A stretch of 64,000 nucleotides of DNA from Octopus vulgaris (lineage: Eukaryota). Within the stretch, counting starts at the first letter, position 1, and each line of letters begins with the position of its first letter. The stretch spans positions 84,692,001 to 84,756,000 of the forward strand of contig OX597820.1 of NCBI GenBank assembly GCA_951406725.2, given 5' to 3'. The notes under the pieces were generated by a model. The model worked only from the letters and a program-made list of their open reading frames with translations. It had not been told where the DNA came from and made no database searches. Below, in pieces: positions 132 to 64,000 of the stretch. The position numbers were made by a program, and so were the translations under genes.

Positions 132-2074
132 GGATCGACTACAAAAAGGCGTTTGATAGCACCCCCACACATGGATCCACGAAACACTAGCCATTAACAA
201 AGTAGCACAAACAATTATAAAATTCATAGGACACTCTATGAATGAATGGCAAACAGTGCTACAGCTCCAAACAAAAGAGGGACTCATGAAAACCAAAGCC
301 ATCCCCATTAGAAGAGGAATATTCCAGGGAGACACGCTCTCTCCACTCCTTTTCTGCTTGGCACTGTCACCTCTATCTGATATGCTAAATAGAACTAGAT
401 GCGGATATAAATGTTACGGCAAAACGATCAGCCACCATTTATATATGGATGACTTAAAACTATACGCTGCAAATGACAAACAGCTGGAAACACTATTAAA
501 GACAGTTCATGGATTTACCAAAGAAATAGATATGAAATTTGGATTAGAAAAATGGGCCAAAGTAACCCTGAAAAGAAGAAAACTAGTTAAGAGTAGCAGC
601 ATCACACTAGATAAAACCAATGAAATAAAAGAATTAGACCAAAGCCAAACTTACAAATACTTAGGAATCCATGAACTAGATACGACACAACACACACAAG
701 TGAAAGACAAAATTAAAAAAGAATATTTTAGACGAATTAGATCAATACTAAAAACAGAGCTCAATGCTAAAAACAAGATAATAGGTATTAACACTTTAGC
801 TGTCCCAGTTATAAGTTACAGCTACAATATCCTTAACTGGACACTAACTGATCTGACCAAAATAGATAGGAAAACAAGAAAAATAATGACATGATCTAGG
901 ATGCATCACCCAAAATCTGACATAGAAAGACTATATATACAACGTATAGAAGGTGTTAGAGGCCTTATACAGCTGGAAAACTACTATAAAATAACCAACA
1001 TAGGACTGCAAAAATATCTACTTCAGAAGGAAGGAAAACTGATACAAATAGCGGCAAAACACGAGCAAAGCAAAAGACTGTTCTCAGTATTTAAGGAAGC
1101 TGACAAATACAAACAAAAAATCATACCACCTAACAAATATGAAGAAGAAGATGAAGAAACAACAAAAGCTATAAAACAAATGAAGTCCAAACTAACACTA
1201 GAACAGCAAAGAACCATGATAAAACGATGGCAAGTAAAGCCCCTTCATGGTAAATACTGGACTAAACTAAATTCAAAAGAAATAGACGAAGAAAAATTTT
1301 GAGAAGCTCAGGACTCAAAGCAGAGACAGAGGGATTTTTAATTGCAGCACAAGACCAAAGCCTCCCCACCAGAATCTACCAAAAACATATAATGAAAAGA
1401 AATATTAAAAGTAACTGCAGAATATGTGGAGATGGACAAGAAACAATAAATCATATTATCTCTGGCTGCCCAGTTCATGCTAAGAAGGAATATATTCACA
1501 GACATGACCGAGTTGGAACCTACATACACTGGAGCTATGCCAACATTATGGAATAACAACAGAAAAAAGATGGTATAGGCACACACCAGAAAAGGTCACA
1601 GAAAACGAGAAAGCAACCATACTCTGGGATATTCCAATACACACAGACAGAGAAATTAAGGCCAACAGACCAGATATAGTTGTCAGAGATCATGAAGAAA
1701 AAAATGCTTTCTAATTGCTGTACCAATACCAGCAGATGACAACGTGTCTCTATAAGAAATGGAGAAACTTTCAAAATACAAAGACCTGGAAATAGAGGTA
1801 ACCAGAATGTGGAATCTAAAAACAGAAACAATCCCTATCATAGTAGGTGCATGATAAAAAAATATTCAGACAAATACATAACAAAAACACCAGGACTTAC
1901 AAACACATATAACATACAGAAAATTGCAGTACTAGGCACTGCACACATCTTACGCAGAACACTTTCCATACAATAACCATCAGAGCATCACAACAAATCA
2001 CAGCACATACCCAAGGCACACAGAGCTGCGCTCGGTAGTGAAGTGAAAGCACGCTATAAAAATAAAACTACTGA
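132..2074 (+). mobile_element. 5'-truncated R4/Dong-clade non-LTR retrotransposon (RT, CCHC finger, restriction-like endonuclease), disrupted by stops and frameshifts
   Basis: RT motifs GIFQGDTLSPLLF and HLYMDDLKLYA (ORF 238-894); CRICGDGQETINHIISGC and RHD (ORF 1299-1556); ANRPDIVV and KYKDL further downstream; 3' UTR with aataaa; (TAA)n on both flanks. Confidence 0.92.
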
Positions 2075-6680: not shown

Positions 6681-7566
6681 CAACAGATATATATTTTATT
6701 TTTATATTCTTTTTTGTTTTGGTTTTTGTAATGCGGAAAACAATCAAAACTAATTTTACAAAAGAACTAATTCCTATGTTCTACTATTACCACTAAACAA
6801 ATTTAGTGCGGCAAAAATGTACAGAGAAATTTCTTTTACAGTTACACTAACAAAATCTGCAACAATTGCTCACGAAAATATACACAGGTAAAGTGGTATT
6901 TTCCGAAGAAAACAAAAGAATATTGAACCTACTTATCAATTAAATATTTTTTTTATATATAGTAAGCAGGTATTAGGCTTAAATACAATATCATTGCTAA
7001 TTAACCAGGTAGGTTATCTTTCCCTATTCATTATTGTCTTTATGTGAGGTTACAATAATAAAGAAACATTACAGCAATGTCTGATTTGTAGCAAAAATTC
7101 GCAACAAAATATAAAATGTTGCCATATTCAGTAAATGACTATAATCAGAAACGTGTAAAACTGTCAATAAAAAATATAATTTTCAAATCTATACAGACCA
7201 AAACAAAATTAGTTTTTGTATCAACAAAATATAAACCATTCATAGTCTAACCGATATTACACGGTTAAAAATTGTTATCAATCTTAAATGATAATTACAG
7301 TAAACAAATGAATAAGAATGAAACCAGTAATTGAAGACAAATTAATACATTCCATAACTTTGAGAAGCATCGGTAATATATTAATGGTTTATAGTAGACT
7401 TACTCAAAGTACGAATACAGGGTCATTACACAATTGACTTTAGGTAGTGGAAGCTGATCTATAAATGATTAGATATAGTATAACTTAACGTATATTAGCT
7501 TTGCCTATGGAAATCCTATATAATTTAGAGAACGCTCACTTAAAATTTTGAAATAGATATGTTATC

Positions 7567-7601
<35 letters not shown>

Positions 7602-8675
7602 TCACTGCCTGGAATCGAACTCGGGATCTACGCCATATGCCCGTGGGCAATTATGTAGTAAATTTTAGGGCTTATAAATCTAATATTTTCCTATCCATCT
7701 TTAATACCGCTATTCATATCGGTCTGCTTAAGAGGTTGTTGTTTCCTAGCATATGCGCTGCTTCTTTTAGTTTTCGTATTTTCCAGTGGTGTTCTCTATC
7801 TATTATTTTAACTTCATCCCACATGGGGGGAGGTGGTCACCATTTTCTCTACAGAATCAGCTATACCCGATTTACCATCATTTCCTCGTGTCACAGCTTT
7901 GCGATAATCCTCTACCATTATTTTGAGGGGGCGGCATGTTTTGTCTTTGTATAACCTACTACAGCAGCATGATATGTAGTACACACAGTGTTTGGTCATA
8001 TTCTCTTCTATTGGTGGTTTTACTCGAATGAGATATTTGCGAAGTGTTGTATTACTCTTGAATACTGTCCTGATGTCATAAGGGACGCATATCTTTTGTG
8101 TCTTTCGGGAACGCCTTTCACACAGGGTAGACAGACTGTAGAGAGTTTATTGGTTTCGTCCTCTCTTTTCTTCATAATTGGAGTAGATAGTATGCTTTTT
8201 TTGTGGCAGTTCTTGCTTAATAGATTGTTACTGAGCTTGATCATTTCGTCGTGGTGGGTATCACGATTGCTACTTATAGTCTTTTCTCGATGTTTTAGGC
8301 ACTGAGCCATTCATCTCTGTATGAATGTTGTAATTTGAAATTAAGGTATCGTCGAGTGATGTTGGCTTGCGGTATAAAGATATCCTGAATCCATACTTGG
8401 TGCGTGTTATTAAAACTTCCAAGAATGCTAGCTGATTGTTTTCTTCTCCATTGTGATCTGTATGGATGGCTTTATTCAGTTCACATAATCTAAAAGTACT
8501 TGAACATATTCCTGGTAGAGCCAGAGAATGAAGGTACCATCAACATATAGCAGCCATAGGGTTGGTTTTAATGGTGTTGATCCTAAAGTCAAATTCTTAA
8601 AGTGATCTATGTATATATTGGCTATTATCGGTGATATTGGCAAACTCATAGCTAAACCCTCTTTTGTAGCCAATT
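7567..8675 (-). mobile_element. Penelope-like element fragment (RT C-terminal half, GIY-YIG endonuclease, 3' repeat ending in (TAA)n)
   Basis: ORF 8476-8673 LAMSLPISPIIANIY..LKPTLWLLYVDGTFILW (PLE RT, MGSPLSP/YVDD); ORF 7814-7999 VYYISCCCSRLYKDKTCRPLK..SGIAD (GIY-YIG). Confidence 0.85.
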
Positions 8676-8679
8676 TTTT

Positions 8680-11190
8680 GTTGTGGCAGTCTGTTTTTGG
8701 TTGAAATCTTTACGATTCCGACGAAGTAAGTGGTGATATTGTTATCATTGTTAAAGGTCTCCCCACCTTTTGTTCCGTGTTGAAATTGCTGTTTCTACTA
8801 ACGTGTATTTTTTAAATTGTGTATTTTTTCCCATTTAAGGGAGAGCCGGACAGAAGAAATGCAATGGAAACTGGACCAGCAAATATCCACAGTTATGCAG
8901 CTGCAACTAGCAGAGGAATAGAATTAGAAACTTTAGAAGTTCGAGAAGTTAAAATCGATCCAAGTAAGCTGAAAGAATGCGGGAAACCGCTGCAAAAAGG
9001 AAGGCCACATATTTAATTGACGCCCTCAGTTGATTTAAAAAATGGAGTTCAGAAAAAGGACAGTGATATACAAAACACTGAAGGTATCGACAAGAAAAAA
9101 TTATATAGCTACTATAGAAGACATTGAGAATTGTAGGAAGGATGTCAAAAAGGTTGCCACGTTTATAACAAGAGAAATATGTTGCAAAGTGGATGTGCGA
9201 TTCGCAAGTGAAGAAGATGACACTGATGATACAAAGGCAGAAGAGTGTGTGCGCCTACCAACATACTGTGGCAAGCGAGTTGTCAGAGTAAGGATGGAAA
9301 AGGGCCACCAGTGTTGGATGAAACATGGTTGGTTGCCACAGTAATGTACAATATGGAGGAGGATGCGAAATTCCTGAGAGTAACAAGAACGAAGAGAGTG
9401 AACTGTTGGGGATACGGAATCGAGATGGCAGTACAGGTAAGTGTGAATGGTATGAAAAAAATTCCGGAAGAATTTATTCTACCCGAAGATAAGAGATTTA
9501 GAGTGGTAGTGGAGGGTAGGCCTCCCATATGCTACCAGAGTGGCGAGAAAGGCCACATAAAGGCGAGATGCCCTCAGACAGAAGAGAAGGAACACCAGAT
9601 GTAAAAGTCTGAGGAGCATGAAAGAGTGAACGATGTGGTGTAGGGAGATTAGATGGAGACAACAGGAATAGAGGATGAATTTGAAGTGGTTAAAAAACGA
9701 AAGATGAAAGAAAGAGCGGGCCTCTCCGCAGGAGAGACAGAAAAAAAAAGAAGTATCAGATAAAGAGATGGAGAAGGAAGTCGTAAAGTGGTTAAAAAGA
9801 AAGCCGTAAAGCATATTGAAAAGTAGGTGGAGACCTAGTTAGAAAAAGTGGTTGAAAAGGAGGTTTCGGAGGAGGAGGAGGAGAAGGAGGTAGAGTTAAA
9901 AGCAAGCATACGAGAGAACCTTTTTGGACAGAAACAGAAGAAACAGCGACACTTACCAGAATGAGGGAGGTGGCACCAAGAGTGGAACATGGCAAACAAG
10001 CAAGAAGACAAAGAAAACAGCTGGACTTTCGTGACATATTCTAAAAGCATATATACCGAAAGAATGATAACCAAGCTTATATCCATTATAAGGGTTAAGT
10101 TACCCAAGGAGATATACGGTGAAAACGTAAAAGCTTTTCCAATCGATAAGTAAAATATAAAAAGTTGAAGGAAAAGTGTCAAATTGAGCAGCCGGGAATT
10201 GTGGATGGGTTCGCCAAACTGCTGCCAGCAGTACCATTAAGTAAACTAGATCCGTATGTAAGATATTAAGAAAAAGGGATCGTTTCCTTTTGAACGGTAG
10301 ATGTCAACACAATTTCTAGTTAACTAAACACTTTTAAACTTCGTATACTGGTAGAATGTGTTTATAAAACATCATTTTCTCTTGGTTTCATTGAGAAAAT
10401 TCTATAGTTTGTAAGATATTTCGTCTTAAAATCCGAGCATTTCAGCAAATTTAACCAATCCTATGCTCTCTTTTGAGCTAAAATCATTTACTGCGTCTAA
10501 AACTGAGACAACATCCTGTCACTACCCCTAAACCTAACTCTAACCCTATTTTTTTTTCTTAATATTTAAATGAATTTAATTGTTACGCGTGTAAAAAATA
10601 CCGAAAGCAATGGAAAATGATTTAAACAATTAACAAACAAAATAATTCCATAATTTTATACACACGATTTCCATACGTATACGGAAAGCGTGTGTTACGG
10701 AAAGCGTGTGTTACGGAAAGCGTAACAATTCGAAAAATTAAACTACGTTAAACAAACAAATTACAATTTTCTCAAGAAAGCCAAGAGAAACAAATGTTTT
10801 CTTAAGAAAGCCAAGATAAAAAAATGGTTTATTTTGACACATTCTCCCAGTATACAAAGTGTTAAAGTGTTTAGTTAACTAGAAATTGTCTGCCGTTCAA
10901 AAGGAAAAGATCTAGAAAAAGAGAGTAAAATGTATTTGTTTTTTTATTTTAAAGAAGAAAAAAGAGTAAACTAAATGATGCTAATAAGGAAAAAAGGAAA
11001 AGATAACGACCTGAAAGTAAGAACTTCCAATTGGTACTGTATCTCAGTGGGGCTCATGCACCCATTTCACCACCATCGATTTATTGTATATGTTTCATTT
11101 GTTTTATGTTTTTTGTCCCCACTGTGGTGTTCTCTCTGTCCTTGTGCTCTCCATTCTGTGTCAGGGCTTCGGTGCCAAATAAAAAGAATT
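8680..11190 (+). mobile_element. ORF1-only (RT-less) L1/Tx1-related retroelement, copy 1, pseudogenised and interrupted by a MITE
   Basis: Broken ORF from the ATG near 8864: SYAAA..LEVREV..RTVIYKTL..LPTYCGKRVVRV..VVEGRPPICYQSGEKGHIKARCP (gag-type zinc knuckle), then a K/E-rich region; ends ggcttcggtgcc-a-aataaaaagaa; no EN or RT. Confidence 0.7.
10277..10913. mobile_element. Non-autonomous DNA transposon (MITE) with about 120-bp imperfect TIRs and an 8-bp TSD
   Basis: Left end ggatcgtttccttttgaacggtag, right end ctgccgttcaaaaggaaaagatct; agaaaaag duplicated at 10269-10276 and 10914-10921. Confidence 0.85.
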
Positions 11191-11193
11191 ACT

Positions 11194-12660
11194 GTCAGTG
11201 AGATATTTTTGTTAGTGTTAAATCATTTTTGATACCGGTTTACGTAAATCGTGTTATACTTTGTGGTATCTTTCCGGAAGTTTCTCCTCGAGCAGGTGAG
11301 CCTTGTTTTGTTGAATTTGTTAAATACCGTTGCTGTATTTGCTTTCGGTCCTGTTGAATTTCGTGTTTTTCTTCTTCACCATTTTGGAGCGAAGTGATCG
11401 GGAAAAGAAAAAGAAATGACGTGTGAACCAGTTCAAGTACATGCCGGGAGTTATGCTTTGGCAGCTGGGAAAGGTGCAGATTCGCTAGAAGTGCGGGAAA
11501 TTGAAATTGAACAGAAGCTGAAAGAATACTACAGCCTGATTCAGAAGGAGGGATCCAGTTTAAAGCTGACCCCTCCAGAAGAAGTGACAACCAGTACCGA
11601 GAAAGGAACAGTGGTGCAGAGAACACTATCGACAACCACGTAGAAAATAGAGATAGCTACAAAAGAAGCAATTGAAGAATGTCTTAAAAAAATTAAGAAC
11701 CTGACAACATTCTATACAAGAGGCAGAAATACAGCACAGTAGAAGTGATATTCGGCAACAAAAATGGGGCAATAAATCACTCCACTGTGACACTGAAGAC
11801 GGGGAAATAGGTACTTCTACCTACCTACTGCAGCAAAAGGGTCGGCAGTGTCAGAATAGGCAGACTACCACTAGAAATCAAAGAAACGTGGCTGGTAGCA
11901 ACCGTAATATATAAAATCGAAGGAAACGCCGAAATGTAAAGGTGACAAGGACAAACAAGATATATTGCTGGGGATACGGACTTGGAATGGTCTTTCAGGC
12001 TGGAAAAAAGGATCTGAACGAAATCGCTGATGATTTTACTGGAGGACATAAGATTGTTGGTGGAAGGAGGGCCACCGACCGGCTATCAATGCGGAGAGAA
12101 GTGACACGTTAGAATAGAGTGTCCCCAGAAGGAAATTAAAAACATGGAAAGCCAACAGGAGCTGAATGCCGAAATGGCGGGCTTAGAAAATGAAAAATGC
12201 ACGGAAGAAGTGGAGAACCATTTAAGGAGATGACCAAAAGAAAAACGAAAGAACTAGTAAATTCACCTCCGAAGAGTCCAAAAGAGAAAAAAGAAGAGTA
12301 AAATAGACATTGCACAGCTTATGAGGCATACACTTCCAAAACCATCACCAACAAAAGGAAAGGAAAAGGATATCTACCCAAACAACAGAAGTTCACTCCA
12401 GAAACAAACAAAGAGCCTAGGAAAAATAAATGATATATGGTAACATATACAAACAAGTAGTGTGATAGAAAAGAAAATAACCAAATTAAAATCGGTATTT
12501 AGAGTAAAATTACCAGCGGCGATTTACACAGAAAATATAAAAGGCATATTAACAGACCAAGAGAGGTATGGAAAATTAATAGACCAAGAGAGTTAGGGAA
12601 AATTAAGAGAATGAGGATGTAATCGACTCATCTCCACCCCCCCAAGCTTCCCTTGTAGCA
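11194..12660 (+). mobile_element. ORF1-only retroelement, copy 2 (diverged, 3' end not recognisable), head-to-tail with copy 1
   Basis: ORF 11416-11643 SYALAA..LEVREIEIE..LKLTPP..TVVQRTL; then LPTYCSKRV, ETWLVATV, LVEGGPPTGYQCGEKxHVRIECP and VKLPAAIYTENIK, all collinear with copy 1. Confidence 0.7.
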
Positions 12661-13224
12661 AACAATTGAAGTAATATTCATTATTATTGTTATTTATTCG
12701 TTTATCTATCCTTCTATTTCAACATCTTGTCTTGGGGTTTGATTTCCTCATAATCAACTTACACGTAAACGTTTTAGACTTTTTGGCTATTTTCGCTTTC
12801 ATTGTCGTATTTTTATTCTAGATTACCGTCCTATCTACATTCCCGTCCGTCTTACTGTGAAACTGGAGATTTATCAAAATCAACGCATGTATATAAGTCG
12901 ATACAAATTGTTGGCTTCATACGTTATTTTAAAATTTCTTATATTATATCATATATTTTATAGTATATTATTTTATATCATAATGTAAATATATCGTTAG
13001 TTTGTCAACTGTATTTCTTTTTTTTTCCATTTAATACTTGTATTTGGTATTTATGACGCTTTTTCTGTGATATTCAACTGCTGCAGTTGAAGTGGATATT
13101 TTACATCTCTTTGTAGGAATTGCTTTTCCTTCGTTTTTTTTTAAATATAATATTTCATTATTTTTATTATTTTCATTCATTATTATAAATCTTTATTTTT
13201 ATTCTTACATACTTCAATTTATTT

Positions 13225-13270
13225 TCATTATTATTATTATTATTTATTATTATTTTTATTATTATTATTA

Positions 13271-13320
<50 letters not shown>

Positions 13321-13325
13321 TTATT
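13225..13325. repeat. (ATT)n microsatellite
   Basis: Directly visible. Confidence 0.9.
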
Positions 13326-13563
13326 TTAAATTTGTTATGTTATATTATGTTATATTTTTATAGTAAATTATATTATATTCAAATGTAAATAAATTGTTAG
13401 TTTGTCAATTGCATTTCTCTGTTTTATTAAATATTTGTATTAGTAATATAAAAAGGATAAGATATAAATAAAAATAAATGTTTTTTGTAGATTCATTGAT
13501 GTCCATGATCTATTTTTAGTATATGTATGAGTTTATATTCGTGTGTTTATATGTGTTCCCGTA

Positions 13564-13632
<69 letters not shown>

Positions 13633-14119
13633 TGCATACTGGCTTACGTTACACGCATATAAGACTACTACGGAGAGATATAAAGTGTATTACGTCATCA
13701 ATATTAGTGTTATCGATAGATTCATGGCATTTGCATGTAAAATAAGATGTTTTATATTATCTTAATATTATTATTAAATTGATATTTAAATATTATATTA
13801 TATAATATATATATAGTTATACTATTTTTATCCTATGTTTGGTTTGTAAATTAAGTTACACTTATTATATGATGAATAAAAAAAATAATGTTTATGTTTT
13901 TCATTTAGTTTACTAAATGTCTTATGTTTTATGTGCTGAGAACATGCCAAGAAATGTTTTATATCAAATTTATTGTCCAGCACAATCGTCAGATACTGCC
14001 AACCTGGCAGTAATAAAATGGATCATAACATTTAGCAACAGGACAATAATTGCAGCCGAAAAAAAAAAACCAAATAACGAATTGTAAGACTTTAAAACGG
14101 TCGTACGCGGGCAAAGAAA

Positions 14120-14538
14120 CGATTTCCTATCTACTGTAGGCCCAAGTCTGAAATTTGAGGAGGAAATAGATGATTACATCAACCCGAGTTGGAAGAAATG
14201 CTGCTAAGCATTGTGTCTGGCATTTCGTCGGCTTTGGCATCTAAATTTACTCGTGGTAGCGCAATATTAAGAATTTTCCTTTTCCAACAGTCTAATCTGT
14301 TGTACGTATGCGAAAGAATAATGGTAATCTTTTATCACTGAAGTCACAATTCATGAAATTTTGCGTCGGGGCTAGTCGATTGCATGGACTCCAGAACGCA
14401 TCTGGTATTTATTTTAACGGCCCCGGAAGGATGAAATGCAAGATCGAACTCGGCCTGATTTGACATCAGAGCGTAAAGTCGGACGAAATGACGCTACGCA
14501 TTTTGCCTGGCGTGCTCACTTTTCTGCAAGATCGCTGT
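14120..14538 (-). mobile_element. Two degenerate SINE family B fragments
   Basis: ccccggaaggatgaaatgcaagatcgaactcggc..gaaatgacgctacgcattttgcctggcgtgc is similar to 35160-35280. Confidence 0.65.
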
Positions 14539-14552
14539 AATGATAACAACAA

Positions 14553-14674
<122 letters not shown>

Positions 14675-15160
14675 ATAGACATTATATTGAAAGACCTCAG
14701 ACAAAAATCATGTCCCTTATTGATATGACTTCCCAACTGATATAAAATATCTGTCAATACCCACCAAAAACTGAGCAAATATAAATATCTGGAAATAGAA
14801 ATTGGCAAAGCGCTGAACCTCAAGACTAAAACAGTACTTGTTGCCATATGTGCCCTAGGAATGATAGCAAAAGTGGTTGGCAATTACATAGCTCAGATGC
14901 CATGAATGGCCAAAATGGTAGAAATTAAAAAAAATAGTGCTTAAGGGAAAAGCCCATATCCTACATAAAATACTATGTAATCTAAAATTTCAAAACAAAC
15001 TTATAATTTTCTTGCTTTCTTAAACATTCTCTTCAACAATACTATGTGCAAAACCAAATCTATGACACCCTAGGCATAACACCAACATGAACTTCTAATT
15101 ACTTGTGTCTTGAAGTCAATGGGTGAGACTTGGAATCAACTTGTATAAATACAAGATAAG
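14675..15160 (+). mobile_element. R4/Dong-like 3' fragment (RLE C-terminus and 3' UTR)
   Basis: DIILKDLRQKSC..ID..HQKLSKYKYLEIEIGK..NLKTKTVLVAICALGMI. Confidence 0.75.
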
Positions 15161-15164
15161 AGCT

Positions 15165-17520
<2,356 letters not shown>

Positions 17521-24210: not shown

Positions 24211-24761
<551 letters not shown>

Positions 24762-24829: not shown

Positions 24830-27800
24830 TATGAAAATTTTGGGTAAAATTTTCGGTGAAAATTTTCCAAAAACTTTGGGTAAAATTCACGGTGAAAAGT
24901 TTCGAAAAATTTTTGGGTAAAATTTTCGATGAAATTTTTGGGTAAAATTTTCGATGAAAATTTTCCGTGAAAATTTTGGAAAAATTTTGAAAAATTTTTA
25001 GAAAAATTCTCGGAGAAAATTTTTGAAAAAGATTTGAGTAAAATTTTCGAAAAATTTTTCGGTAAAATTTTCGTTGAAAATTTTGGGAAAATTTTTGGGT
25101 AAAATTTTCGGTAAAAATTTTCGTAAAATTTTTAGGGAAAATTTTCCCAAAATTTTTTGGAAAAGATTCGGTAAAAATTTTTGAAAAATTTTTGAAAAAA
25201 TTTTGAAAATGTTCGGGTCAAAATTTTGGAAAAATGTTCAGATGAAAATTTTGGAAAAATGTCTGCTCAAAAATTTTTCGAGAAAATTTTCGAAAAATTG
25301 TTTGGTAAAATTTTCGGTGAAAATTTTCCAAAAATTCTTTGGTGAAATTTACGGTCAAAAGTTTTGAAAAATTTTTGGGTAAAATTTTCGGTGAAAATTT
25401 TCGAAAGATTTTTGGATAAAATTTTCGGTGAAAATTTTGGAAAAATTTTTAGGAAATTTCTCGGTGAAAATTTTCGCGAAATTTTTGGTAAAATTTTCGG
25501 TGAAAATTTTTGAAAAAGTTTTGGGTAAAATTTTTGAAAAATTTTTAGGTAACATTTTCGTTCAAAATTTTTGAAAAACTTTTCGTTCAAAATTTTCGAA
25601 AAATTCTTTTGTAAAATTTTCGGTGAAAAGTTTGGAAAAATTTTTGGGTAAAATTTTCGGTTTTCGAAAATTTTTGGAAATTTTCGATGAAAATTTTTGG
25701 GGAAAATTTTTGAAAAATGTTCGGATGAAAATTTTCGGTGAAAATTTTGTGAAATTTTCGGTGAAAAGTTTAAAAAAATTTTTGGGTAAAATTTTCGGTG
25801 AAAATTTTCGAAAATTTTTTGGGTAAAATTTTCGGTGAAAATTTTGGAAAATTTTGTGTAAAATTTTCGGTAAAAATTTGGGAAAAATTTATGGGTAAAA
25901 TTTTCGGTAAAAATATTTGAAAAATGTTCGGGAGAAAATTTTTGAAAAATGTTAGGATGAAAAATGATCGGTTGAAAAATTTTTCTAGAAAATTTTCGGT
26001 GAAAATTTTCGAAAAATTCTTTCGTTAAATTTTCGCTGAAAACTTAGGAAAAATTTTTGGGTAAAATTTTCGGTGAAAATTTTCGAAAAATTATTGGGTA
26101 TATTTTCGGATGAAAAATTTTTGATAAATGTTCGGGTGAAAATTTTTGAAAAATGTTCGGATGAAAATTTTCGGTGAAAATTTTTGTGAAATTTTCGGCG
26201 AAAAGTTTTAAAAAATTTTTGGGTAAAATTTTCGGTGAAAATTTTTGAAAAATTTTGGGTAAAATTTTCGGTGAAAATTTTCGAAAAATTTTGGGTAAAA
26301 TTTTCGGTGAAAATTTTGGAAAATTTTGTGTAAAATTTTCGGTAAAAATTTGTGAAAAATTTATGGGTAAAATTTTCGGTAAAAATATTTGAAAAATGTT
26401 CGGGAGAAAATTTTTGAAAAATGTTAGGATGAAAAATGATCGGTTGAAAAATTTTTCTAGAAAATTTTCGGTGAAAATTTTCGAAAAATTCTTTCGTTAA
26501 ATTTTCGCTGAAAACTTAGGAAAAATTTTTGGGTAAAATTTTCGGTGAAAATTTTCGAAAAATTATTGGGTATATTTTCGGATGAAAATTTTGATAAATG
26601 TTCGGGTGAAAATTTTTGAAAAATGTTCGGATGAAAATTTTCGGTGAAAATTTTTGTGAAATTTTCGGCGAAAAGTTTTAAAAAATTTTTGGGTAAAATT
26701 TTCGGTGAAAATTTTTGAAAAATTTTTGGGTAAAATTTTCGGTGAAAGTTTTTGAAAATTTTGTGTAAAATTTTCGGTAAAAATTTGCGAAAAATTTATG
26801 GGTAAAATTTTCGGTAAAAATATTTGAAAAATGTTCGGGAGAAAATTTTTGAAAAATGTTAGGATGAAAAATGATCGGTTGAAAAATTTTTCGAGAAAAC
26901 TTTCGGCGAAAATTTTCGAAAAATTCTTTCGTTAAATTTTCGCTGAAAACTTTGGAAAAATTTTTGGGTAAAATTTTCCGTGAAAATTTTGGAAAAATTT
27001 TTGGGTAAAATTTTCGGTGAAAATTTAGGAAAAATTTTTAGGAAAACTCACTGTGAAAATTTTTGAGAAGTTTTTGGGTAAAATTTTCGTTGAAAATTTT
27101 TGAAAAAGTTTTGCGTAAAATTTTCGAAAAATTTTTGGATAAAATTTTCGATGAAAATTTTGGAAAATTTTGTGTAAAATTTTCGATAAATTTTTTGGTA
27201 AAAGAGTGTGGAAAAATATTTGGGTAAAATTTTCGGTGAAAGTTTTGGAAAAATTTTGGGTAAAATTTTCGGTGAAAATTTTGGAAAAATTTTTAGGTAA
27301 AATTTTCGGTGAAAATTTTGGAAAATTTTGTGTAAAATTTTCGGTAAAAATTTTTGAAAAAGTTTTGGGTAAAATTTTCGGTGAAAATTTTTGAAAAAGT
27401 TTTAGGAAAATTCCCGGTGAAAATTTTGGAGAAGTTCTTGGGTAAAATTTTCGTTGAAAATTTTTGAAAAAGTTTTGCGTAAAATTTTCTAAAAATTTTT
27501 GGGTAAAATTTTCGTTCAAAAGTTTGAAAAATTTTTGGGTAAAATTTTCGGTGAAAATTTTCTAAAAATTTTTTGGCAAAATTTTCGGTGAAAATTTTCC
27601 AAAAAGTTTTTGTTGAAATTTTCGGTGAAAAGTGTGGAAAAATTTTTGGGTAAAATTTTCGGTGAAAATTTTTTAAAAGTTTTGGGGAAAATTGTCGGGA
27701 AAATTTTTGAAAAATTTTTAGGAAAATTCTCGGTGAAAATTTTCGGGAAATTTTGGGTAAAATTTTCGGGTGAAAATTTTCGAAAAATTATTTGTTAAAA

Positions 27801-28411
27801 TTTTCGGTGAACATTTTCCAAAAATTCTTTGGTGAAATTTTGGGTGAAAATTTTTGGGTAAAATTTTCGGTGAAAATTTTGGAAAAATTTTTGGGGAAAA
27901 TTTTCGGGAAAATTTTAGAAAAATTTTTAGGAAAATTCTCGGTGAAAATTTTCGAGAAATTCTTGGGTAAAATTTTCGGTGAAAATTTTTCAAAAAAGTT
28001 TTGGGGAAAATTTTCGAAAAATTTTTGGGAAAAGTTTCGTGAAAATTTTCGAAAAATTTTTGGGTAAACCTCTCGGTGAAAATGTTGGAAAACTTCAAGT
28101 GAAAAACTTGGAAAAATCACAAGGCAAGCGGTGCCATAATCACGAAGTATGGAAGGCCAGCGGTGCGAAAATCACAAAATATGGAAGGCCAGCGGTGCCA
28201 TAATCACAAAGTATGGAAAGCAAGCGGTGCCAAAATCACAAAGTATGGAAGGCCAGCGGTGCCAAAATCATGATTTTCCAAAATTTTGACCGAAAATTTT
28301 ACTCAAAAATTTTTCGGAACTTTTCACCGGAAATTTTCACGAGCAATTTTGGAAAAATTATTGCAAAATTTTCACAGGAACATTCTACCAAATTTTTCCC
28401 CCGAACAATTT
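24830..28411. repeat. Complex A4T4 satellite or foldback-like element: 12-13-bp subunits, about 37-bp unit, higher-order repeat, 32-bp core array and inverted terminal arm
   Basis: aaaattttcggtg/aaaattttgggt repeats 24830-28110; marker atgatcggttgaaaa at 25964, 26436 and 26871; 32-bp repeats 28138-28270; opposite-orientation arm 28272-28411. Confidence 0.85.

Positions 28412-29699: not shown

Positions 29700-29750
<51 letters not shown>
29672..29750. repeat. (GATA)n tract at the 3' flank of the Tx1 element
   Basis: Directly visible; a matching tract lies at 32502-32594. Confidence 0.95.
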
Positions 29751-29751
<1 letters not shown>

Positions 29752-32501
29752 GTTTCTTTATTGGCCACACCGGGCTGCACACAGATGGGACAAGTTACTT
29801 GGTAGAGCTTTTCTTTTGGGGGATGAAAAAAAGTGGGTGGCGTAGGTTTTCGATCAAGAGGGATCGTAAAAGAGAAGAAAAGAACAAAAAAAAGAAAAAA
29901 AAGAAAAAAAGTAGAATAAAAAATAAAAAGAATAAAAGAAAAAAAAGAAAGGGAAAGGAACAAAAGAAAAGAGAAATGAAAAAAGAAGAAAAAGGTGAAA
30001 AAAAGGGGAAGAGGAAAAAAAAAAGGAACGATCAATAGTGATCGCGTATCACAGTGTTATGATACATGGTGTAAAGGGGAAAGCAAGTAAGGTTTATCCG
30101 TAGGAAGAAAAGCCTACGAAAAAGACCACGGTAACCTTGGTCAATATTGTTATATGTTACCACATTTGTTTGCAAGTGGGTAACCCTCTGTTTTTAATTT
30201 CTGGGTTCATAGGATTATGCTCAAGGTGGCTTCGTTATTCATACGTGCCATCCTTGCTACATTCACCCATCTTTTTTAAAACATTCGCTAGACAAAACTT
30301 GCCTCTCTACTCTCACTTTCCTTTTCAAGTGGTACTTGAAGAAGTTGATGAGAGATTGACCAGAGAGGAAAGTGTTTGTCTCCAATCCTTTCAGACGCGT
30401 CCACCAGATACATTCTTTCGCCATAGCCACAAGGATGATGAAAATAGCTCTTCCTTCCCGTTTCAAGGAAGGAGGCGTGACAATATTGACGATAGACTCA
30501 GCTGATAAACCGACTCGTTCCACACGTGACAGCAGTTGTTCGACACAAGCCCACAGGTCGGAAATTGTTGGACACTGCACGAGTGCGTGCAGAACGGTTT
30601 CGTCGCTCTGACCGCATCTCGGGCAGGTCGGCCCCGTGTTTCTCGAGCCGTGTCTGTAGAGCTTATCCCGAACGGGTAGCGCTTCTCGGTAACACTGCCA
30701 GGCCAGGGATCTCTGGAAGTTGTCCATGGGCCCTGGCCCGAAAGTCGTCCTGAACAGGCGGGTCAGGTACTCCTCGTCGACGTCCAGGTTCGCCCCGAGC
30801 TCGTCGTCGTACCTCCCCTCCACTAATCCCCTATAGAATGCTTTGGTTGTGTTGAAGTCACTCAAGGTCGACCCAGGACGGCAGAGTTGCTTGAGAGCAA
30901 CGCGACACTCGCGGTGCCATTCGCCCTTCCTCGGCCTCTTTTTGATCCACGACTGCAGTTCGGTCATGGAGACGAGCTGCGGGAAAGCGTGCCTCACAAA
31001 CGGCAACCACACCTGTTCACCGTCGTCTACATAGAGCCAGAGATGTCGCAGTCTCAGCGCGTGTCTGCGCATCATCAACCACGGCATGCCCAGGCCTCCT
31101 TTTAACGGGTGTTGACAACAAATGGATCGCCTGACCATCGGGACGCATCCTTTCCACAAGAAGCGAAAGAGAATGCGTTGTAGTTTGGTGATGGTAGGGT
31201 CGGGACAAGGTACGACGGTCAGGCGGTAGCAGATGACGAACGCGATGTACGTGTTCGCCACCTCCGCCCGACCTTTTAGGGACAGTTTCCTCTCGGCCCA
31301 TTGCCGGGCGAGAGTGACCACCCTACTCGTTATCTCGTTCCAGTTCTTCTCCACTTGGAGGTCCTGCCAAACCAGACCCCGAGCAACTCAACCGGGCCGT
31401 CGGTCCAGCGTCCCACGACGGAGGCTTGCTTCTCCAGGTGCCTAGTCGCAAGCCCACTGACTTTTCCCGGTTGATTTTCGCTCCTGTCACCGCTTCGTAG
31501 TTTTTCAGTGTCTCGCCGACCTGCTCGATATGTTGTGGCTAGACACTATGACGGTGACGTCGTCCGCGTATGCAGACACGCTCGTCCCGCATCCCAGTTC
31601 TCGCGGGATGCCCCTCAAAGTTGCCAGCTTCCGCGATAATGGCTCGAGAGTCAATACGTATAGAAGCGACGAGAGGGGGCATCCCTGACGGACCGAACGT
31701 GCGATGTCGAAGGGTCTCGATAGATGTCCATTCACGCGAATTACCGAACGGATGCCTCTGTACAAAGCGGCTATCCAGCCGCGGAAGACCGGACCGAAGC
31801 CAGCCGCTCTGAGGACCGTCTCCAAGTATCGATGGTCTACCCTATCGAAAGCTTTCGATTGATCCAAATTGATCAGCGCCCCACCCATGCCAGGTTCGTT
31901 AACTACCCTGTCTATGATGTAGCGCATCAGGTGGAGGTTGTCATGGATGGTCCGGCCTGGCACGGCGCATGTTTGCGCCTTGTCGACCAGTTTCTCGATG
32001 ACAAGCGCCAACCTCTTGGCTAGCACCTTGGCCAAAATTTTCAAGTCTGCATTAAGCAGAGTGATGGGCCTAAAGTTATCTATTACATTTCCCTTGTTTA
32101 GATCTTTCTTCAGCAGTGTTACGGCTCCTCGGCTCACAAAACCAGGAATGCTCCCGTTTTGCTGCCAGTTGCAGTACACCGCCGCCAAGAGATCTCCAAA
32201 CAAGTCTGGCATACAATTGTAAAGCTCGTAGGGTAGACCATCCAAACCCGGTGATTTGTCCCTCGAGCATTCTGCCATCGCGTCCTGCACTTCCGCCGCC
32301 GTGATGGCACCTTCGCAGCACCCTGCCTTTCTTGTCGAGAGTCGTTGTAGGCTATGTAGGTAGGCACTGAAGTCCACCCTACGTTCTTGCCCTCCACTCG
32401 TCCCGAACAGTCGGGCAAAATGCTGCTGAAAGGCCTCACACATTTTACTTGGCTCGAGCAATTCGCGCCCCTGTTCGTCTACCAGGGACCGAATGCTGGC
32501 T
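29751..32501 (-). mobile_element. 5'-truncated Tx1/L1-clade LINE (ORF2 RT and C-terminal zinc finger; few lesions)
   Basis: ORF 31505-32461 KSPGLDGLP, NFRPITLLNADLKILAK, DQSKAFDRVDH, VRQGCPLS, AYADDVT; ORF 30263-31354 LSLKGRA, GGLG, CPRCGQSDETVLHALVQC; GC-rich; pyrimidine-rich 3' UTR ending ..tggccaataaagaaact. Confidence 0.95.
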
Positions 32502-54732: not shown

Positions 54733-54884
54733 ACGTTTGGTTTAATCCCTCATTTTGTTGTTGCAGTCTTTTCAGTGCTGATTAATGTACCTGTTCTTAA
54801 TCTCCCTTTGGCATGATTGTTTAACACCATGCTTCTCGTCACGTCCTTGCCGAAGCTCTATGGACAATTCGTATATGTTTTTCC

Positions 54885-54944
<60 letters not shown>

Positions 54945-55108
54945 ACGTTTGGTTTAATCCCTCATTTTGTTGTTGCAGTCTTTTCAGTGCTGATTAATGT
55001 ACCTGTTCTTAATCTCACTTTGGCACGATTGTTTAACACCATGCTTCTCGTAACGTCTTTGCCGAAGCTCTATGGACAATTCGTAGATGTTTTTCCCATC
55101 ATCACCAC

Positions 55109-55172
<64 letters not shown>
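54733..55172. repeat. Tandem duplication of about 212 bp, each unit ending in (ATC)n
   Basis: acgtttggtttaatccctcattttg.. starts at 54733 and again at 54945. Confidence 0.9.
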
Positions 55173-58087: not shown

Positions 58088-59410
58088 AGGTCAAATACTA
58101 CTCTACACCACATTGAAGATGTACTCAAAGCCTTGGGAACAGGTTCGAACTCGGATGTCATATAACTTGACTTCAGTAAAGCGTTCGACAGGGTAGACCA
58201 TAATATCCTACTTTCAAAATTGGCAAATGTTGGAATCCGTGGAAAAGTTCTACACTGGATTAAGTATTTCCTGGCGAATAGAACACATGTTGTAGTTGAT
58301 GGAGTCCACTCAATCCCAACAAAATTCACCAGCGGTGTCCTCCAGGGTACTGTCTTGGGTCCGCTACTCTTCATAATCTACATAAACGACCTTTCCAGTG
58401 TCGTACGTTACTGTAAAGTGAAAATATTTGCTGATGACACTAAGCTCCAGCAAATCGTCAATGAAGAAGCAGACTGAACTCAACTCCAGTCTGATCTATA
58501 TGCTGTGAGTCAATGGGCACACAGAAACACAATGCAACTGAACGAGGGAAAATTTGAGCTGAAGCATTTTGGAAGGAATTCCTCACTAAAACAGCCATAC
58601 TCTCTTCCTTCAGGGGAACCGCTCACAGCCTCTAACAATATCAGATACCTGGGTGTAATTGTTGATGACGATCTCAGTTGGAGTGCACACATCAACAAGA
58701 AGGTCGATATATCTCGTAGGATGAGTTCCTAGATCTTAAGAACTTTCCGGTCCAGAGAACAAGGTGTCATCATACCACTTTTCTCCTCCTTTGTACGGCT
58801 ACACCTCGAATACTGCTGCCCACTGTGGTCTCCCCATACAAGACAAAACATCTCGAGGATTGAATCACCCCAGAGAGCACTCACTAAACGAATTGAAGGA
58901 ATGGCTGCTCTCGATTATTGGGATCGCCTTAAAGCCTTGAAACTCTACTCTCTCCAGCGTCGCCGTGAGCGGTACGTCATTTGTACGATGTGGAGAATAT
59001 ACCACCAACTTTGCCCAAACGACCTGAACATTAGCTTCAAGGTTCGTCCAAGACTGGGACCACGGGCCATACGTCCTCTACCCAATTCAAGATCACAGCA
59101 TACGTGTACACTGCAACATAATTTCTTTTCCTCAACAGGCCCTGTCCTATTTAACATTGTGCTGAAAGAGATCAAAGAGGAAAAGGATCCCATCAACTTT
59201 AAACGGAGTCTGGATAGATTCCTTCAAGGAATACCAGATAAGCCACGCATAATTGGATACAACTCACCCAACAAAAGCTCACTACTTGAATGGTCCATAA
59301 ACAAAACTTTACTTAAACAGGATTCAAATAATCCTATCAGGTGGTGCTATTAATTTAGACATGGCTTGGACCAATCATTGGTCGAAACATATCTAAGTTT
59401 ATCTAAGTTT
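58088..59410 (+). mobile_element. CR1-clade LINE 3' part (RT to 3' end)
   Basis: DFSKAFDRVDH, SGVLQGTVLGPLLFIIYIND, FADDTK, HLEYCCPLWSP, LKLYSLQRRRERY; 3' hairpin gaccaatcattggtc and terminal (atctaagttt)2. Confidence 0.92.
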
Positions 59411-61652: not shown

Positions 61653-61686
61653 TAGGCGCAGGAGTTGCTGTGTGGTAAGTAGCTTG
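61653..61686 (+). mobile_element. SINE family A 5' head, split by the ORF1-only element
   Basis: taggcgcaggagttgctgtgtggtaagtagcttg matches 24307-24340 and continues at 63933. Confidence 0.85.
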
Positions 61687-63932
61687 GTTACAGGTTGCTT
61701 CTGCGCATGTGCGAGTCAGTGTTGTGTTTGGCACTGAAGCGGTGAAGACGTGCTTTTGAAGCCGTCTTGAATTGAAAATTTTTGAAGCCCCATTGTAAGG
61801 TAAGATTCTGTTTTCTGGGTCCAGTGGGAGTTTTTGTTGAAAATTGTTTTTTACAGGCAGGAAGTACTACTGGATTCAGAATTCTGATTCTGCCGACATG
61901 GGGCAAATATATTTTTCTCGCTGAATTGTGGAAATTTTGGGGGGCGTATTCGTCTTCGATAATTGAGTGAATATTTTTCTCACCTAATTATGAGAATTGT
62001 ATTGTGCTGTGAAGAACTTTAAGAATTGTGAGAACTGTTATATAGGGGAGTGTTTTGCCTCCGAAGTTTGAACAATTTTTACCAATTTTACACCAATTTT
62101 TGTGGAAGTTGTGTTCCATTTGCGGCGTTCCGGGTTCAATTTAGGCCGGGAGTACCGAATGGCCAGAAGGTTTTTGCTGTGTTATTGACTTTCTTTTTAA
62201 CTTTATTTGACTTTCTCCTTTTTGTTCATTGTGACTTTCTTCTGATTTCTTTTTCTTCTCGCTTTTTAAGTTTTATTTTGAATATATTTAAAAAAAAGAA
62301 AAAAAAAACATGGCAAGGAAAAATGACAAAATTTTGGAATGGGAGATCATACCGCCTAAAAAGTGGTTAAAAGACCGTGAAGATAGGACGGTGGTGTTGA
62401 GAACCTACTCCAAGGCACTCGACACCATCGCCCTGTTCGAAAAGACGGCAATTGAAAAGGAGTTGGCAGAGTATTTGCCAACAATTAAATTCATTTCCAG
62501 GGGTGTCAAATATGCAACGGTGTGGTTGCTATTTGACACCCCTGAAGAGGCTTGCAAATTTGCTAGTAAACCTTTGGCGAGTAAGGAAATTTTATTCCTG
62601 CCCACGTACCAAAAAAAGAGACTGACGAAAGCTTGGATTTGCGGGCTGCCACTCGGGATAGAACCCGAGTGGATACAGGAGACTATCCGCCGGGGTTTGG
62701 GTAGCAGCGAAACTAAGCTCCTTAATGTGAAATTTCTTCCTGCGCTGCTTGGGTTGGGTCAAAAGCAATTTTGACCCTTTGGACCCAATCAGCCAATCTG
62801 GTTCTTCCAGATTTTTTGAAAATGACCGGGTGCAGGTACCCGGTGATGCTTGAGGGTCGCCCCCCTAAGTGTCATCGGTGCTTGGAGTCCGGCCATATAA
62901 AGAAGATCTGTCCCCGGGAACAAAATAGGATCCCGGAACAGTTAAGTGAAACCCCTGTAGAAGAGGGAAAGATAACGGCCGAGGAAGCAGAGGACTCCTC
63001 AAACAGAGGCCGAAAGAGGAAGGTGAGCAACAATGGGTGCTCACCAAAGGACACTAGGGATGAGGAGGGAAAGGCGAATCTTCCGGCCACGGAGGAGACG
63101 CACCCTCCCTCAGTTGAAAAGAAAAAAAAAGAAAAAGAGGAAGAGAAACGGGACATTACTGGCTGTCGGTGACATAGCACCGGAATGTCCCGGAACTACG
63201 TCGGTTGGGGTTGTGCCACCGACAGGAGAATAAATACCGTTGGCGGGAACTGTGCCGCCAACGAAAGAATTGAGTATCCCGCACCCGAGCAAAAACGAGG
63301 TATTGATCCTCTTCCATAGAGGCGGAGAGATTGAAAAGGTGAAGGAAAAGCACCACAAGGGAGCACCTTTAGCCTTCACACAGGACCCCAAATGGCCTCC
63401 GCAGGTAGCTGTGGAGGCCGTGGCGTTCGACGTGACGCTTGGGCTGAAGGAGCTCAATGAGGATTATAGCTTGGTCCCGGGTGACGCTAACTCGGAACTC
63501 GATTACGTTCTGAGGGAGGCATGGTGGATGGTGGAGGATGCGGGCACAAGTTATTTCGAGGACGAGTCAAATTGTGATACGACTTGAGGGGCCCCGACCT
63601 AGAGCTGGCGCATTCCTAAGGGAAGTGTAAGCCAGGTCTGGGAGGAGGGTATTTGTGTATTGTATTTATATATGTAATTATTGAACTACGTTGTTATTAG
63701 TAATGGACTACTAAGACCAAAAATTGAAAAAATTGTAAGAGGTTTAATACCTCGTTTTGTGTTTGTTTTTAAAAGAACAATGTTTTAGAGAAGTAGAAGT
63801 CGGCGGACGCTTTTTGTCTTCTCCCATCCCCATCATATTTCTTTCATTATCATACACTTCATTAATGTCCTCGTCCAGCCCGCAAAGCTAACTTACTCTA
63901 TGTACTGCCTTTATGGCAAATGTTATGAAATA
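61687..63932 (+). mobile_element. Complete 2.25-kb ORF1-only (HAL1-like) retroelement, copy 3, with TSD
   Basis: About 620-bp 5' UTR; broken ORF 62310-63587 (RTVVLRT..LPTYQKKR..MLEGRPPKCHRCLESGHIKKICP); about 345-bp 3' UTR; aataaa at 63929; aagtagcttg duplicated at 61677-61686 and 63933-63942. Confidence 0.85.
62310..63587 (+). pseudogene. Disrupted ORF1/gag-like nucleic-acid-binding protein (probable RRM-like region, CX2CX4HX4C knuckle, acidic/basic linker, C-terminal domain)
   Basis: Consecutive ORFs 62310-62774, 62771-63172, the end of 63033-63233 and 63240-63587. Confidence 0.7.
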
Positions 63933-64000
63933 AAGTAGCTTGTCTACCAACCACATGGTTCCGAGTTCAGTCTCACTGCGTGGCACCTTGGGCAAGTGTC
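63933..64000 (+). mobile_element. SINE family A continuation, running off the window
   Basis: aagtagcttgtctaccaaccacatggttccgagttcagtctcactgcgtggcaccttgggcaagtgtc matches 24331-24398. Confidence 0.9.

Follow-up and report, generated by a model that had tools for sequence, protein, structure and literature searches.

Within a 64,000-nt stretch of AT-rich animal DNA from Octopus vulgaris (contig OX597820.1, positions 84,692,001 to 84,756,000; the window), dense in microsatellites and other repeats, three copies have been recognised of an element whose protein resembles the first open reading frame (ORF1) product of long interspersed nuclear elements (LINEs). The copies lie on the plus strand at 8687-11188 (copy 1), 11196 to about 12620 (copy 2) and 61687-63932 (copy 3), and they are best explained, with a probability of roughly two in three, as non-autonomous LINEs like the HAL1 elements, mobilised in trans by a LINE of the apurinic/apyrimidinic endonuclease (APE) type, perhaps of the Tx1 clade. 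Their protein is of the ORF1 type, with a predicted tandem RRM followed by a CCHC zinc knuckle, and no ORF2 is found before the 3' end of copies 1 and 3; downstream of copy 2, whose end is undefined, there is likewise no ORF2.

The best sign of ORF1-only retrotransposition is copy 3, a complete 2,246-nt unit that lies inside a short interspersed nuclear element (SINE) and is made up of a 5' untranslated region (UTR), a single ORF from 62310 and an AATAAA-type end, leaving no room for ORF2. It is bordered by a 10-bp duplication, AAGTAGCTTG (61677-61686 and 63933-63942), and an anchored 10-mer match of this kind arose by chance in 41 of 20,000 random pairs. The sequences on its two sides correspond to the left and the right portion of an intact SINE at 24303-24398. 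Because the two SINE halves stand at its flanks together with the duplication, copy 3 moved as one piece, and its A-rich end, its target duplication and the lack of long terminal repeats (LTRs) or terminal inverted repeats conform to target-primed insertion. Among the three copies it alone keeps an intact knuckle (CX2CX4HX4C), and its best match is an O. sinensis protein with 71% identity. A duplication-flanked ORF1-only copy could also be produced by early polyadenylation of a full-length LINE, and this speaks for a reading in which the copies are by-products of full-length Tx1/L1-type LINEs, formed by early polyadenylation and copying in cis or by later deletion of ORF2, with no ORF1-only lineage propagating on its own and with the coding constraint earned in the parents. 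The 80 L1-Tx1 families of O. vulgaris would suffice for three diverged ORF1 types, and the undefined right end of copy 2 also fits. Such an origin is nevertheless unlikely, as all three copies are devoid of ORF2 but complete at the 5' end, in contrast to the 5'-truncated Tx1-like copy in the window, and as 274-345 nt of non-coding sequence separate stop codon and AATAAA.

Copies 1 and 2 stand head-to-tail, as a sequence-only reading of this DNA had proposed, with their starts now corrected to CAGT at 8687 and CAGT at 11196 and the end of copy 2 left undefined. Copy 1 opens with a T-rich 5' UTR (8687-8863), whose CAGT we take to be a likely internal-promoter initiator, and continues into an ORF1 pseudogene at 8864-10269, recognised by translation, tblastx and profile matches, with folds taken from models of homologues. 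Its layout comprises two predicted RRMs, a degenerate CCHC knuckle (about 9530-9570), an E/K-rich linker and a C-terminal domain (about 10016-10266). Copy 2 begins 7 nt beyond the tail of copy 1 with its own 5' UTR (11196-11415), and its ORF1 pseudogene (11416-12620) has the same architecture, including a degenerate knuckle and a C-terminal domain match at 12456-12578. The two 5' UTRs align from CAGT onwards with a score of 95.5, which none of 500 shuffles reached; therefore both copies keep their 5' ends. Judged from their translations, copies 1 and 2 are dead, because each carries several stops and frameshifts and each has lost one knuckle Cys in the six-frame translation, and as dead copies those in the window imply no host function.

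The ORF of copy 1 runs, as had been noticed earlier, into a 3' UTR with AATAAA, except that 645 nt of this apparent UTR are a miniature inverted-repeat transposable element (MITE) and its duplication. The MITE (10277-10913, 637 nt), which is foreign to the element and lies directly after the stop of copy 1, has terminal inverted repeats of about 120 nt (10278-10399 and 10797-10912, 79% identity) and an 8-bp duplication, AGAAAAAG (10269-10276 and 10914-10921), whose length we take to be hAT-like. With the MITE subtracted, the distance from stop to AATAAA is 274 nt and the native element measures about 1.86 kb; what remains of the 3' UTR (10914-11188) closes with AATAAA (11178), followed by a short A-rich tail. 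The absence of RT (reverse transcriptase) from copies 1 and 2 was confirmed with five Tx1-type ORF2 proteins as queries, which gave no APE or RT match from 8687 to 15,000 at E<=1.

To the right of copy 2, two candidates were rejected. One was a continuation of the RT element that flanks copy 1 on the left: the six frames of 12620-13101 contain no RT match, and contig depth there is only 227-500, against tens of thousands for that element. The other was a zf-RVT-like match at 15149-15646, considered as a lost ORF2 of copy 2; it lies 2.5 kb away beyond microsatellites and other repeats, and in translation its zinc-finger part (15194-15289) resembles the C-terminal part of a different element at 160-1900. 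A 7-bp duplication around copy 2 (11189 and 12852) was discounted as too short. The order in which copies 1 and 2 inserted is unreadable, with no flanking duplication found at copy 1 and only this 7-mer at copy 2.

The arrangement of the pair has been examined with assembled contigs from four sequencing runs, among them X1, X4 and X8. Contigs of run X1 show 0-1 differences from the locus, and this run may come from the same sample as the window; contigs from the runs of three other organisms are about 91-98% identical to it. Among the records listed, contigs cross the left junction of copy 1 in all four runs and the junction between copies 1 and 2 in three of the four (X1, X4 and X8). The arrangement is real and no assembly artefact, and it predates the lineages of the three other runs, because their contigs also cross the junctions.

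The three encoded proteins are homologous, and the significance of their alignment, on which the earlier claim of a diversified family depended, is clear from comparison of their cores as read-through translations with X at each break. Copies 1 and 2 are identical at 98 of 221 positions (44%; blastp E 3e-53), copies 2 and 3 at 51 of 193 (26%; E 8e-21) and copies 1 and 3 at 45 of 196 (23%; E 4e-12). Copies 1 and 2 are also collinear by tblastx (E 1.6e-33), in agreement with the shared motifs first reported by eye, all of which were located in the six-frame translation: SYA.A at 8891 and 11449, LEVRE at 8933 and 11485, ETWLVATV at 9326 and 11889, VKLP at 10094 and 12504, and, in all three copies, LPTY at 9255, 11817 and 62598 and EG(R/G)PP at 9512, 12063 and 62852. 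The knuckle region that follows the last of these was likewise claimed for all three copies and is found in each, with the knuckles themselves degenerate in copies 1 and 2.

The core of a relative, P0020, modelled on a 19-row alignment (pLDDT 89.6), matches tandem-RRM proteins in Foldseek (38 matches at E<=0.001), with VIA as the best structural match (Z 9.1, root-mean-square deviation 2.2 over 75 residues). The region upstream of the knuckle is thus predicted to be a tandem RRM fold and not a capsid. Pfam zf-CCHC is found in 12 of the 19 aligned members, and beyond the knuckle no Pfam ORF1 family is significant in these 19 members or in the 149 relatives scanned for domains; Transposase_22 matches none in either set. 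Among Atlas features, which serve as leads only, the look-alikes are RRM/CCHC, ZCCHC3-RBD (score 0.90) and DUF4283 clusters. A C-terminal domain of about 87 residues follows the charged linker in copies 1 and 2 and in nine stored proteins. It is modelled as beta-alpha-beta-beta-alpha-beta (pLDDT 84, 8 rows); it would be a common ferredoxin-like arrangement with no specific match, its best Z being 6.0, with no Foldseek match at E<=0.001 and no usable Atlas feature match. Copy 3 lacks this domain.

An origin of this protein as the gag of some non-LINE element such as an LTR or DIRS element, or as the ORF1 from a LINE clade outside L1/Tx1 (e.g., L2, CR1, I or Jockey), mobilised together with that partner, has some points in its favour, as zinc knuckles match retroviral nucleocapsids, RRM and CCHC ORF1s are found in several LINE clades, and the window carries RT elements of further types. 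Against it, neither long terminal nor split repeats occur at the ends of any copy, the predicted fold before the knuckle is a tandem RRM where a gag would have a capsid, and the AATAAA end with a duplication fits target-primed insertion; we regard it as very improbable, and a LINE parent outside Tx1 would alter the name of the helper only. The pairing of RRM with zf-CCHC places the protein in Type I ORF1, a trait shared beyond Tx1; in non-mammalian animals, ORF1 proteins of Type I with RRM and CCHC have been described as fitting the Tx1 clade (PMC5203782, in the text available). With Tx1-clade ORF1 the octopus protein has the order of its domains, RRM and zf-CCHC, in common, and it differs in that no ORF2 follows and no Pfam ORF1 family is significant beyond the knuckle.

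Relatives were sought with one 124-residue sequence against 50%-identity representatives, which gave 150 proteins at E<=0.001. Of the 152 stored proteins, 108 cover 40 or more positions of the profile ahead of the knuckle, and these belong, two excepted, to separate 50%-identity clusters, so that the family is large and diversified, as had been supposed. Many of these are short fragments, probably translated from other fossils. When 29 were looked up, 19 were named Octopus, 10 carried no taxon and none came from another genus; the named ones are from Octopus bimaculoides, O. sinensis and O. vulgaris, where they are annotated as "CCHC-type domain-containing" or uncharacterised genes. An RT domain occurs in one of the 149 scanned relatives, which matches at the knuckle only. 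A search with the profile for longer proteins returned P0020 alone among 8,000 scored candidates, a weak result from a crowded candidate list.

These relatives also bear on the possibility that the copies arose as processed pseudogenes from domesticated, ZCCHC3-type host genes whose transcripts were passively retrocopied by LINE enzymes. ZCCHC3 resembles the octopus protein in its two RNA-binding domains and knuckle, its RNA-binding domain clusters are among the Atlas look-alikes, and retrocopies would likewise show a 5' UTR, an ORF, AATAAA and a duplication. ZCCHC3 is, however, a conserved host gene, whereas the octopus copies are many, diverged, broken and interspersed: three paralogues of 23-44% identity lie inside 64 kb, two of them head-to-tail, the 108 diverged relatives are mostly fragments in single-member clusters, and among the 19 named proteins there is no conserved orthologue beyond Octopus. 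We give this explanation very little weight.

Several observations on the relatives may be added. Logan proteins P0042, P0049, P0085, P0008, P0015 and P0017 lie on contigs of 1.6-1.9 kb, near the 1.86 kb of copy 1, and four members of the P0042 cluster all lie on contigs of 1,884 nt, which could be transcripts or mere contig breaks. In P0050, an Octopus bimaculoides gene model, a piece of the C-terminal domain at residues 2-51 is followed by the knuckle region and then by another C-terminal domain; this model may fuse two neighbouring copies on the same strand and would then be a further hint of tandem placement. Family pieces are also spliced into Octopus gene models, namely the RGS-domain protein P0025 and the integrase-domain protein P0002, both of which are probably annotation artefacts.

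Constraint at the protein level, a further part of the sequence-only reading, is borne out for the source lineages. Over 177 aligned codons of copies 1 and 2, identity is 70% at first, 79% at second and 34% at third positions, a contrast that is biased towards positions 1 and 2 by the choice of blocks on protein similarity and that points to selection on the protein in the lineages from which the two copies came. The family was also called abundant. In run X1, where contig depth is not equal to copy number, contigs over both ORFs sum to a depth of 325-2235, compared with 48-80 for contigs specific to the locus. This is modest against depths of 65,000-1,360,000 for the left-flank RT element and the MITE, and the copy 1 and copy 2 subfamilies are thus modest in abundance at the DNA level.

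How far the three copies share one history is a separate question. The tree pairs copy 1 with copy 2 (91/85, not starred) inside a 10-row clade (95/91) and places copy 3 with P0001 on a branch of 1.86. Among the 15 of 187 contig joints that were displayed, one links the end of a copy-2-type ORF (12613) to a copy-1-type tail (11107), in one contig per run and in all four runs; it hints at a member elsewhere whose ORF1 leads into a copy-1-like tail, and its presence in four of four runs despite near-saturated third codon positions counts further against the by-product origin raised above. A second joint, from 11210 (tail and head) to 8725 (copy-1-type 5' UTR), occurs in one contig per run in three of the four runs and hints at another head-to-tail junction elsewhere. 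Each joint probably represents the same locus in every run. Their common 5' UTR, their C-terminal domain and the tail joint make it probable that copies 1 and 2 go back to one ORF1-only ancestor.

Copy 3 may have an origin separate from that of this pair: its 5' UTR shows no similarity to that of copy 1 (score reached in 246 of 500 shuffles) and a marginal one to that of copy 2 (11 of 500), and its tail has no significant similarity to the tail of copy 1 (32 of 500). The earlier view that all three subfamilies descend from one old ORF1-only lineage accordingly stands only for the units themselves, copies 1 and 3 being ORF1-only with ends of their own; the single lineage is not established, because the constraint may date from a time when ORF1 was still part of full-length LINEs and because the precedent of HAL1, which is described as having arisen several times (PMC5753468), shows several origins. 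A more ambitious reading would have an old, self-standing octopus radiation of Tx1-derived ORF1-only retrotransposons, with dozens of subfamilies at 25-45% protein identity that are never accompanied by RT, an ORF1 under selection, one branch that gained a ferredoxin-like domain at the C-terminus, a conserved tail read by the helper, and preferential insertion at each other's ends into head-to-tail runs; it is, on balance, doubtful.

For the preferred reading, HAL1-like elements mobilised in trans, a cycle may be proposed in which transcription of a master copy would start at CAGT, at its 5' end, and the transcript would be polyadenylated at AATAAA, after which the ORF1 protein would coat its own RNA in cis, as the retained coding constraint and the precedents of HAL1 and HeT-A suggest. 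The ORF2 protein of a putative helper would then nick the target and reverse-transcribe from the 3' tail, which would leave a short duplication like that seen at copy 3, and the tandem placement could reflect the kind of target that the helper endonuclease prefers. After insertion the copies would decay, with copy 1 gaining its MITE and copy 2 either losing its tail or having had a different one.

A candidate for the helper class is present in the window as an ORF2 copy at 29750-32500 on the minus strand, a 5'-truncated APE-type (L1/Tx1-like) element with RVT_1 at E 2e-26 and zf-RVT at E 3.4e-8, whose relatives carry endonuclease, RT and zf-RVT. O. vulgaris carries many L1-Tx1 elements, some of them active in recent times, with 13 recent families and 80 in all, according to the accessible text of PMC13282606, and Tx1 elements have been described as often preferring repeats or microsatellites for insertion, with Tx1-moved SINEs often inserted in tandem (PMC4494074, part of the text). 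The target sites of the three insertions are the head of a SINE for copy 3 and a tandem placement for copies 1 and 2, too few to define a preference. The ORF2 copy itself is GC-rich and lightly decayed, has (TATC)n on both sides and shares 71% identity with a protein of Argonauta hians; this setting looks like the microsatellite targeting known for Tx1 families.

Several results weigh against the proposal that the copies are helper-dependent, HAL1-like elements. The likeness of the tail of copy 1 to that of the Tx1-like copy at 29750-32500 is weak: as a match to copy 1, the Tx1-like tail comes first of the 159 other AATAAA sites when the last 30 nt before the signal are compared, but it is tied for second over 40 nt and falls to fourth or fifth over 50 nt, and the alignment of the whole UTRs of the two is not significant (118 of 500 shuffles reach the score). 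No fusion of a family ORF1 to an ORF2 was seen among 120 ORF2-bearing proteins, most of which start at ORF2; the family profile matches one of them, at the knuckle only. No AATAAA tail was recognised at copy 2, whose right end stays undefined, and no significant likeness to the tail of copy 1 was found downstream of its ORF (score reached in 186 of 500 shuffles); clear target duplications are lacking at copies 1 and 2. The contig joints are single contigs in each run, with a short side of 33-39 letters, 80% likeness and unknown letters between the two sides, and the selection of the codon blocks by protein similarity belongs here as well.

Among known systems the closest is HAL1, which has been described as retaining its coding capacity for long while ORF2 is supplied in trans (PMC5753468 and PMC3627910, in the portions available); HAL1 and the octopus elements both consist of a 5' UTR, ORF1 only and a 3' UTR. 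HAL1 is derived from mammalian L1, with an ORF1 described as mostly of Type II with Transposase_22 (PMC5203782), whereas the octopus protein has a predicted tandem RRM and a single CCHC, with the extra C-terminal ferredoxin-like domain in the branch of copies 1 and 2, and its host is a cephalopod. Lacking Transposase_22 and possessing a CCHC knuckle, the octopus elements do not belong to HAL1 in the strict sense. Head-to-tail runs are formed by HeT-A; unlike these, the octopus locus shows no sign of a telomeric setting and holds only a pair among unrelated repeats. HeT-A, of the Jockey clade, and Ag-Sponge, of the CR1 clade, are described as likewise encoding ORF1p only and needing an autonomous partner (PMC5786205); their parent clades differ from that proposed here, and the octopus copies each carry their own 5' UTR.

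In the accessible part of the same review, ORF1-only LINE passengers are listed only for L1 (HAL1), Jockey (HeT-A) and CR1 (Ag-Sponge) (PMC5786205). Spread by means of a borrowed RT is known from mammals and insects. No description of ORF1-only LINEs in octopus was found in the literature searched, although Repbase, Dfam or the O. vulgaris repeat library may already contain these families, and the available portions of three octopus papers make no mention of them (PMC13282606; PMC9115989; PMC8967140). A family in octopus whose ORF1 is of Type I would represent a further independent origin of ORF1-only passengers, and its many diverged subfamilies would permit a test of whether ORF1 must come in cis; a single old radiation, if true, would provide a natural system in which to ask why passenger RNAs require an ORF1 protein of their own. 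Fossils of this kind annotated as genes inflate Octopus gene counts, and repeat classification based on RT would miss them.

The remaining features of the window lie outside the family. Immediately to the left of copy 1, and head-to-head with it, is a minus-strand RT element (7560-8686, from translation), 5'-truncated and present in high copy number, with Pfam RVT_1 at E 0.057 at best, which we take by its motifs to be Penelope-like. It ends in (TAA)n, and its truncated 5' end abuts the CAGT of copy 1. Contig depth in run X1 is 65,000-326,000 for this element and 300,000-1,360,000 for the MITE within copy 1. Rfam gave no matches across the window, and 595 pattern matches in metagenome contigs included none confirmed as a related locus.

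Fragments of a LINE type with a single ORF, bounded by (AAT)n runs, occur at 160-1900 (plus strand), 14690-14980, 15149-15700 and 16150-17400, with RVT_1 at E 7e-15 at 160-891 and a C-terminal part like a zinc finger and nuclease; the type represented at 160-1900 is, by its motifs, presumably R4/Dong-like. A further RT fragment at 58094-58396 (plus strand) is 34-41% identical to Tx1-type ORF2 proteins. At 54733-55156 there are two 212-nt tandem copies with 97% identity, each with a terminal (CAT)n, and at 24832-28117 lies a 3.3-kb degenerate satellite with subunits of 12-13 nt, higher-order periods and a strong G/C skew.

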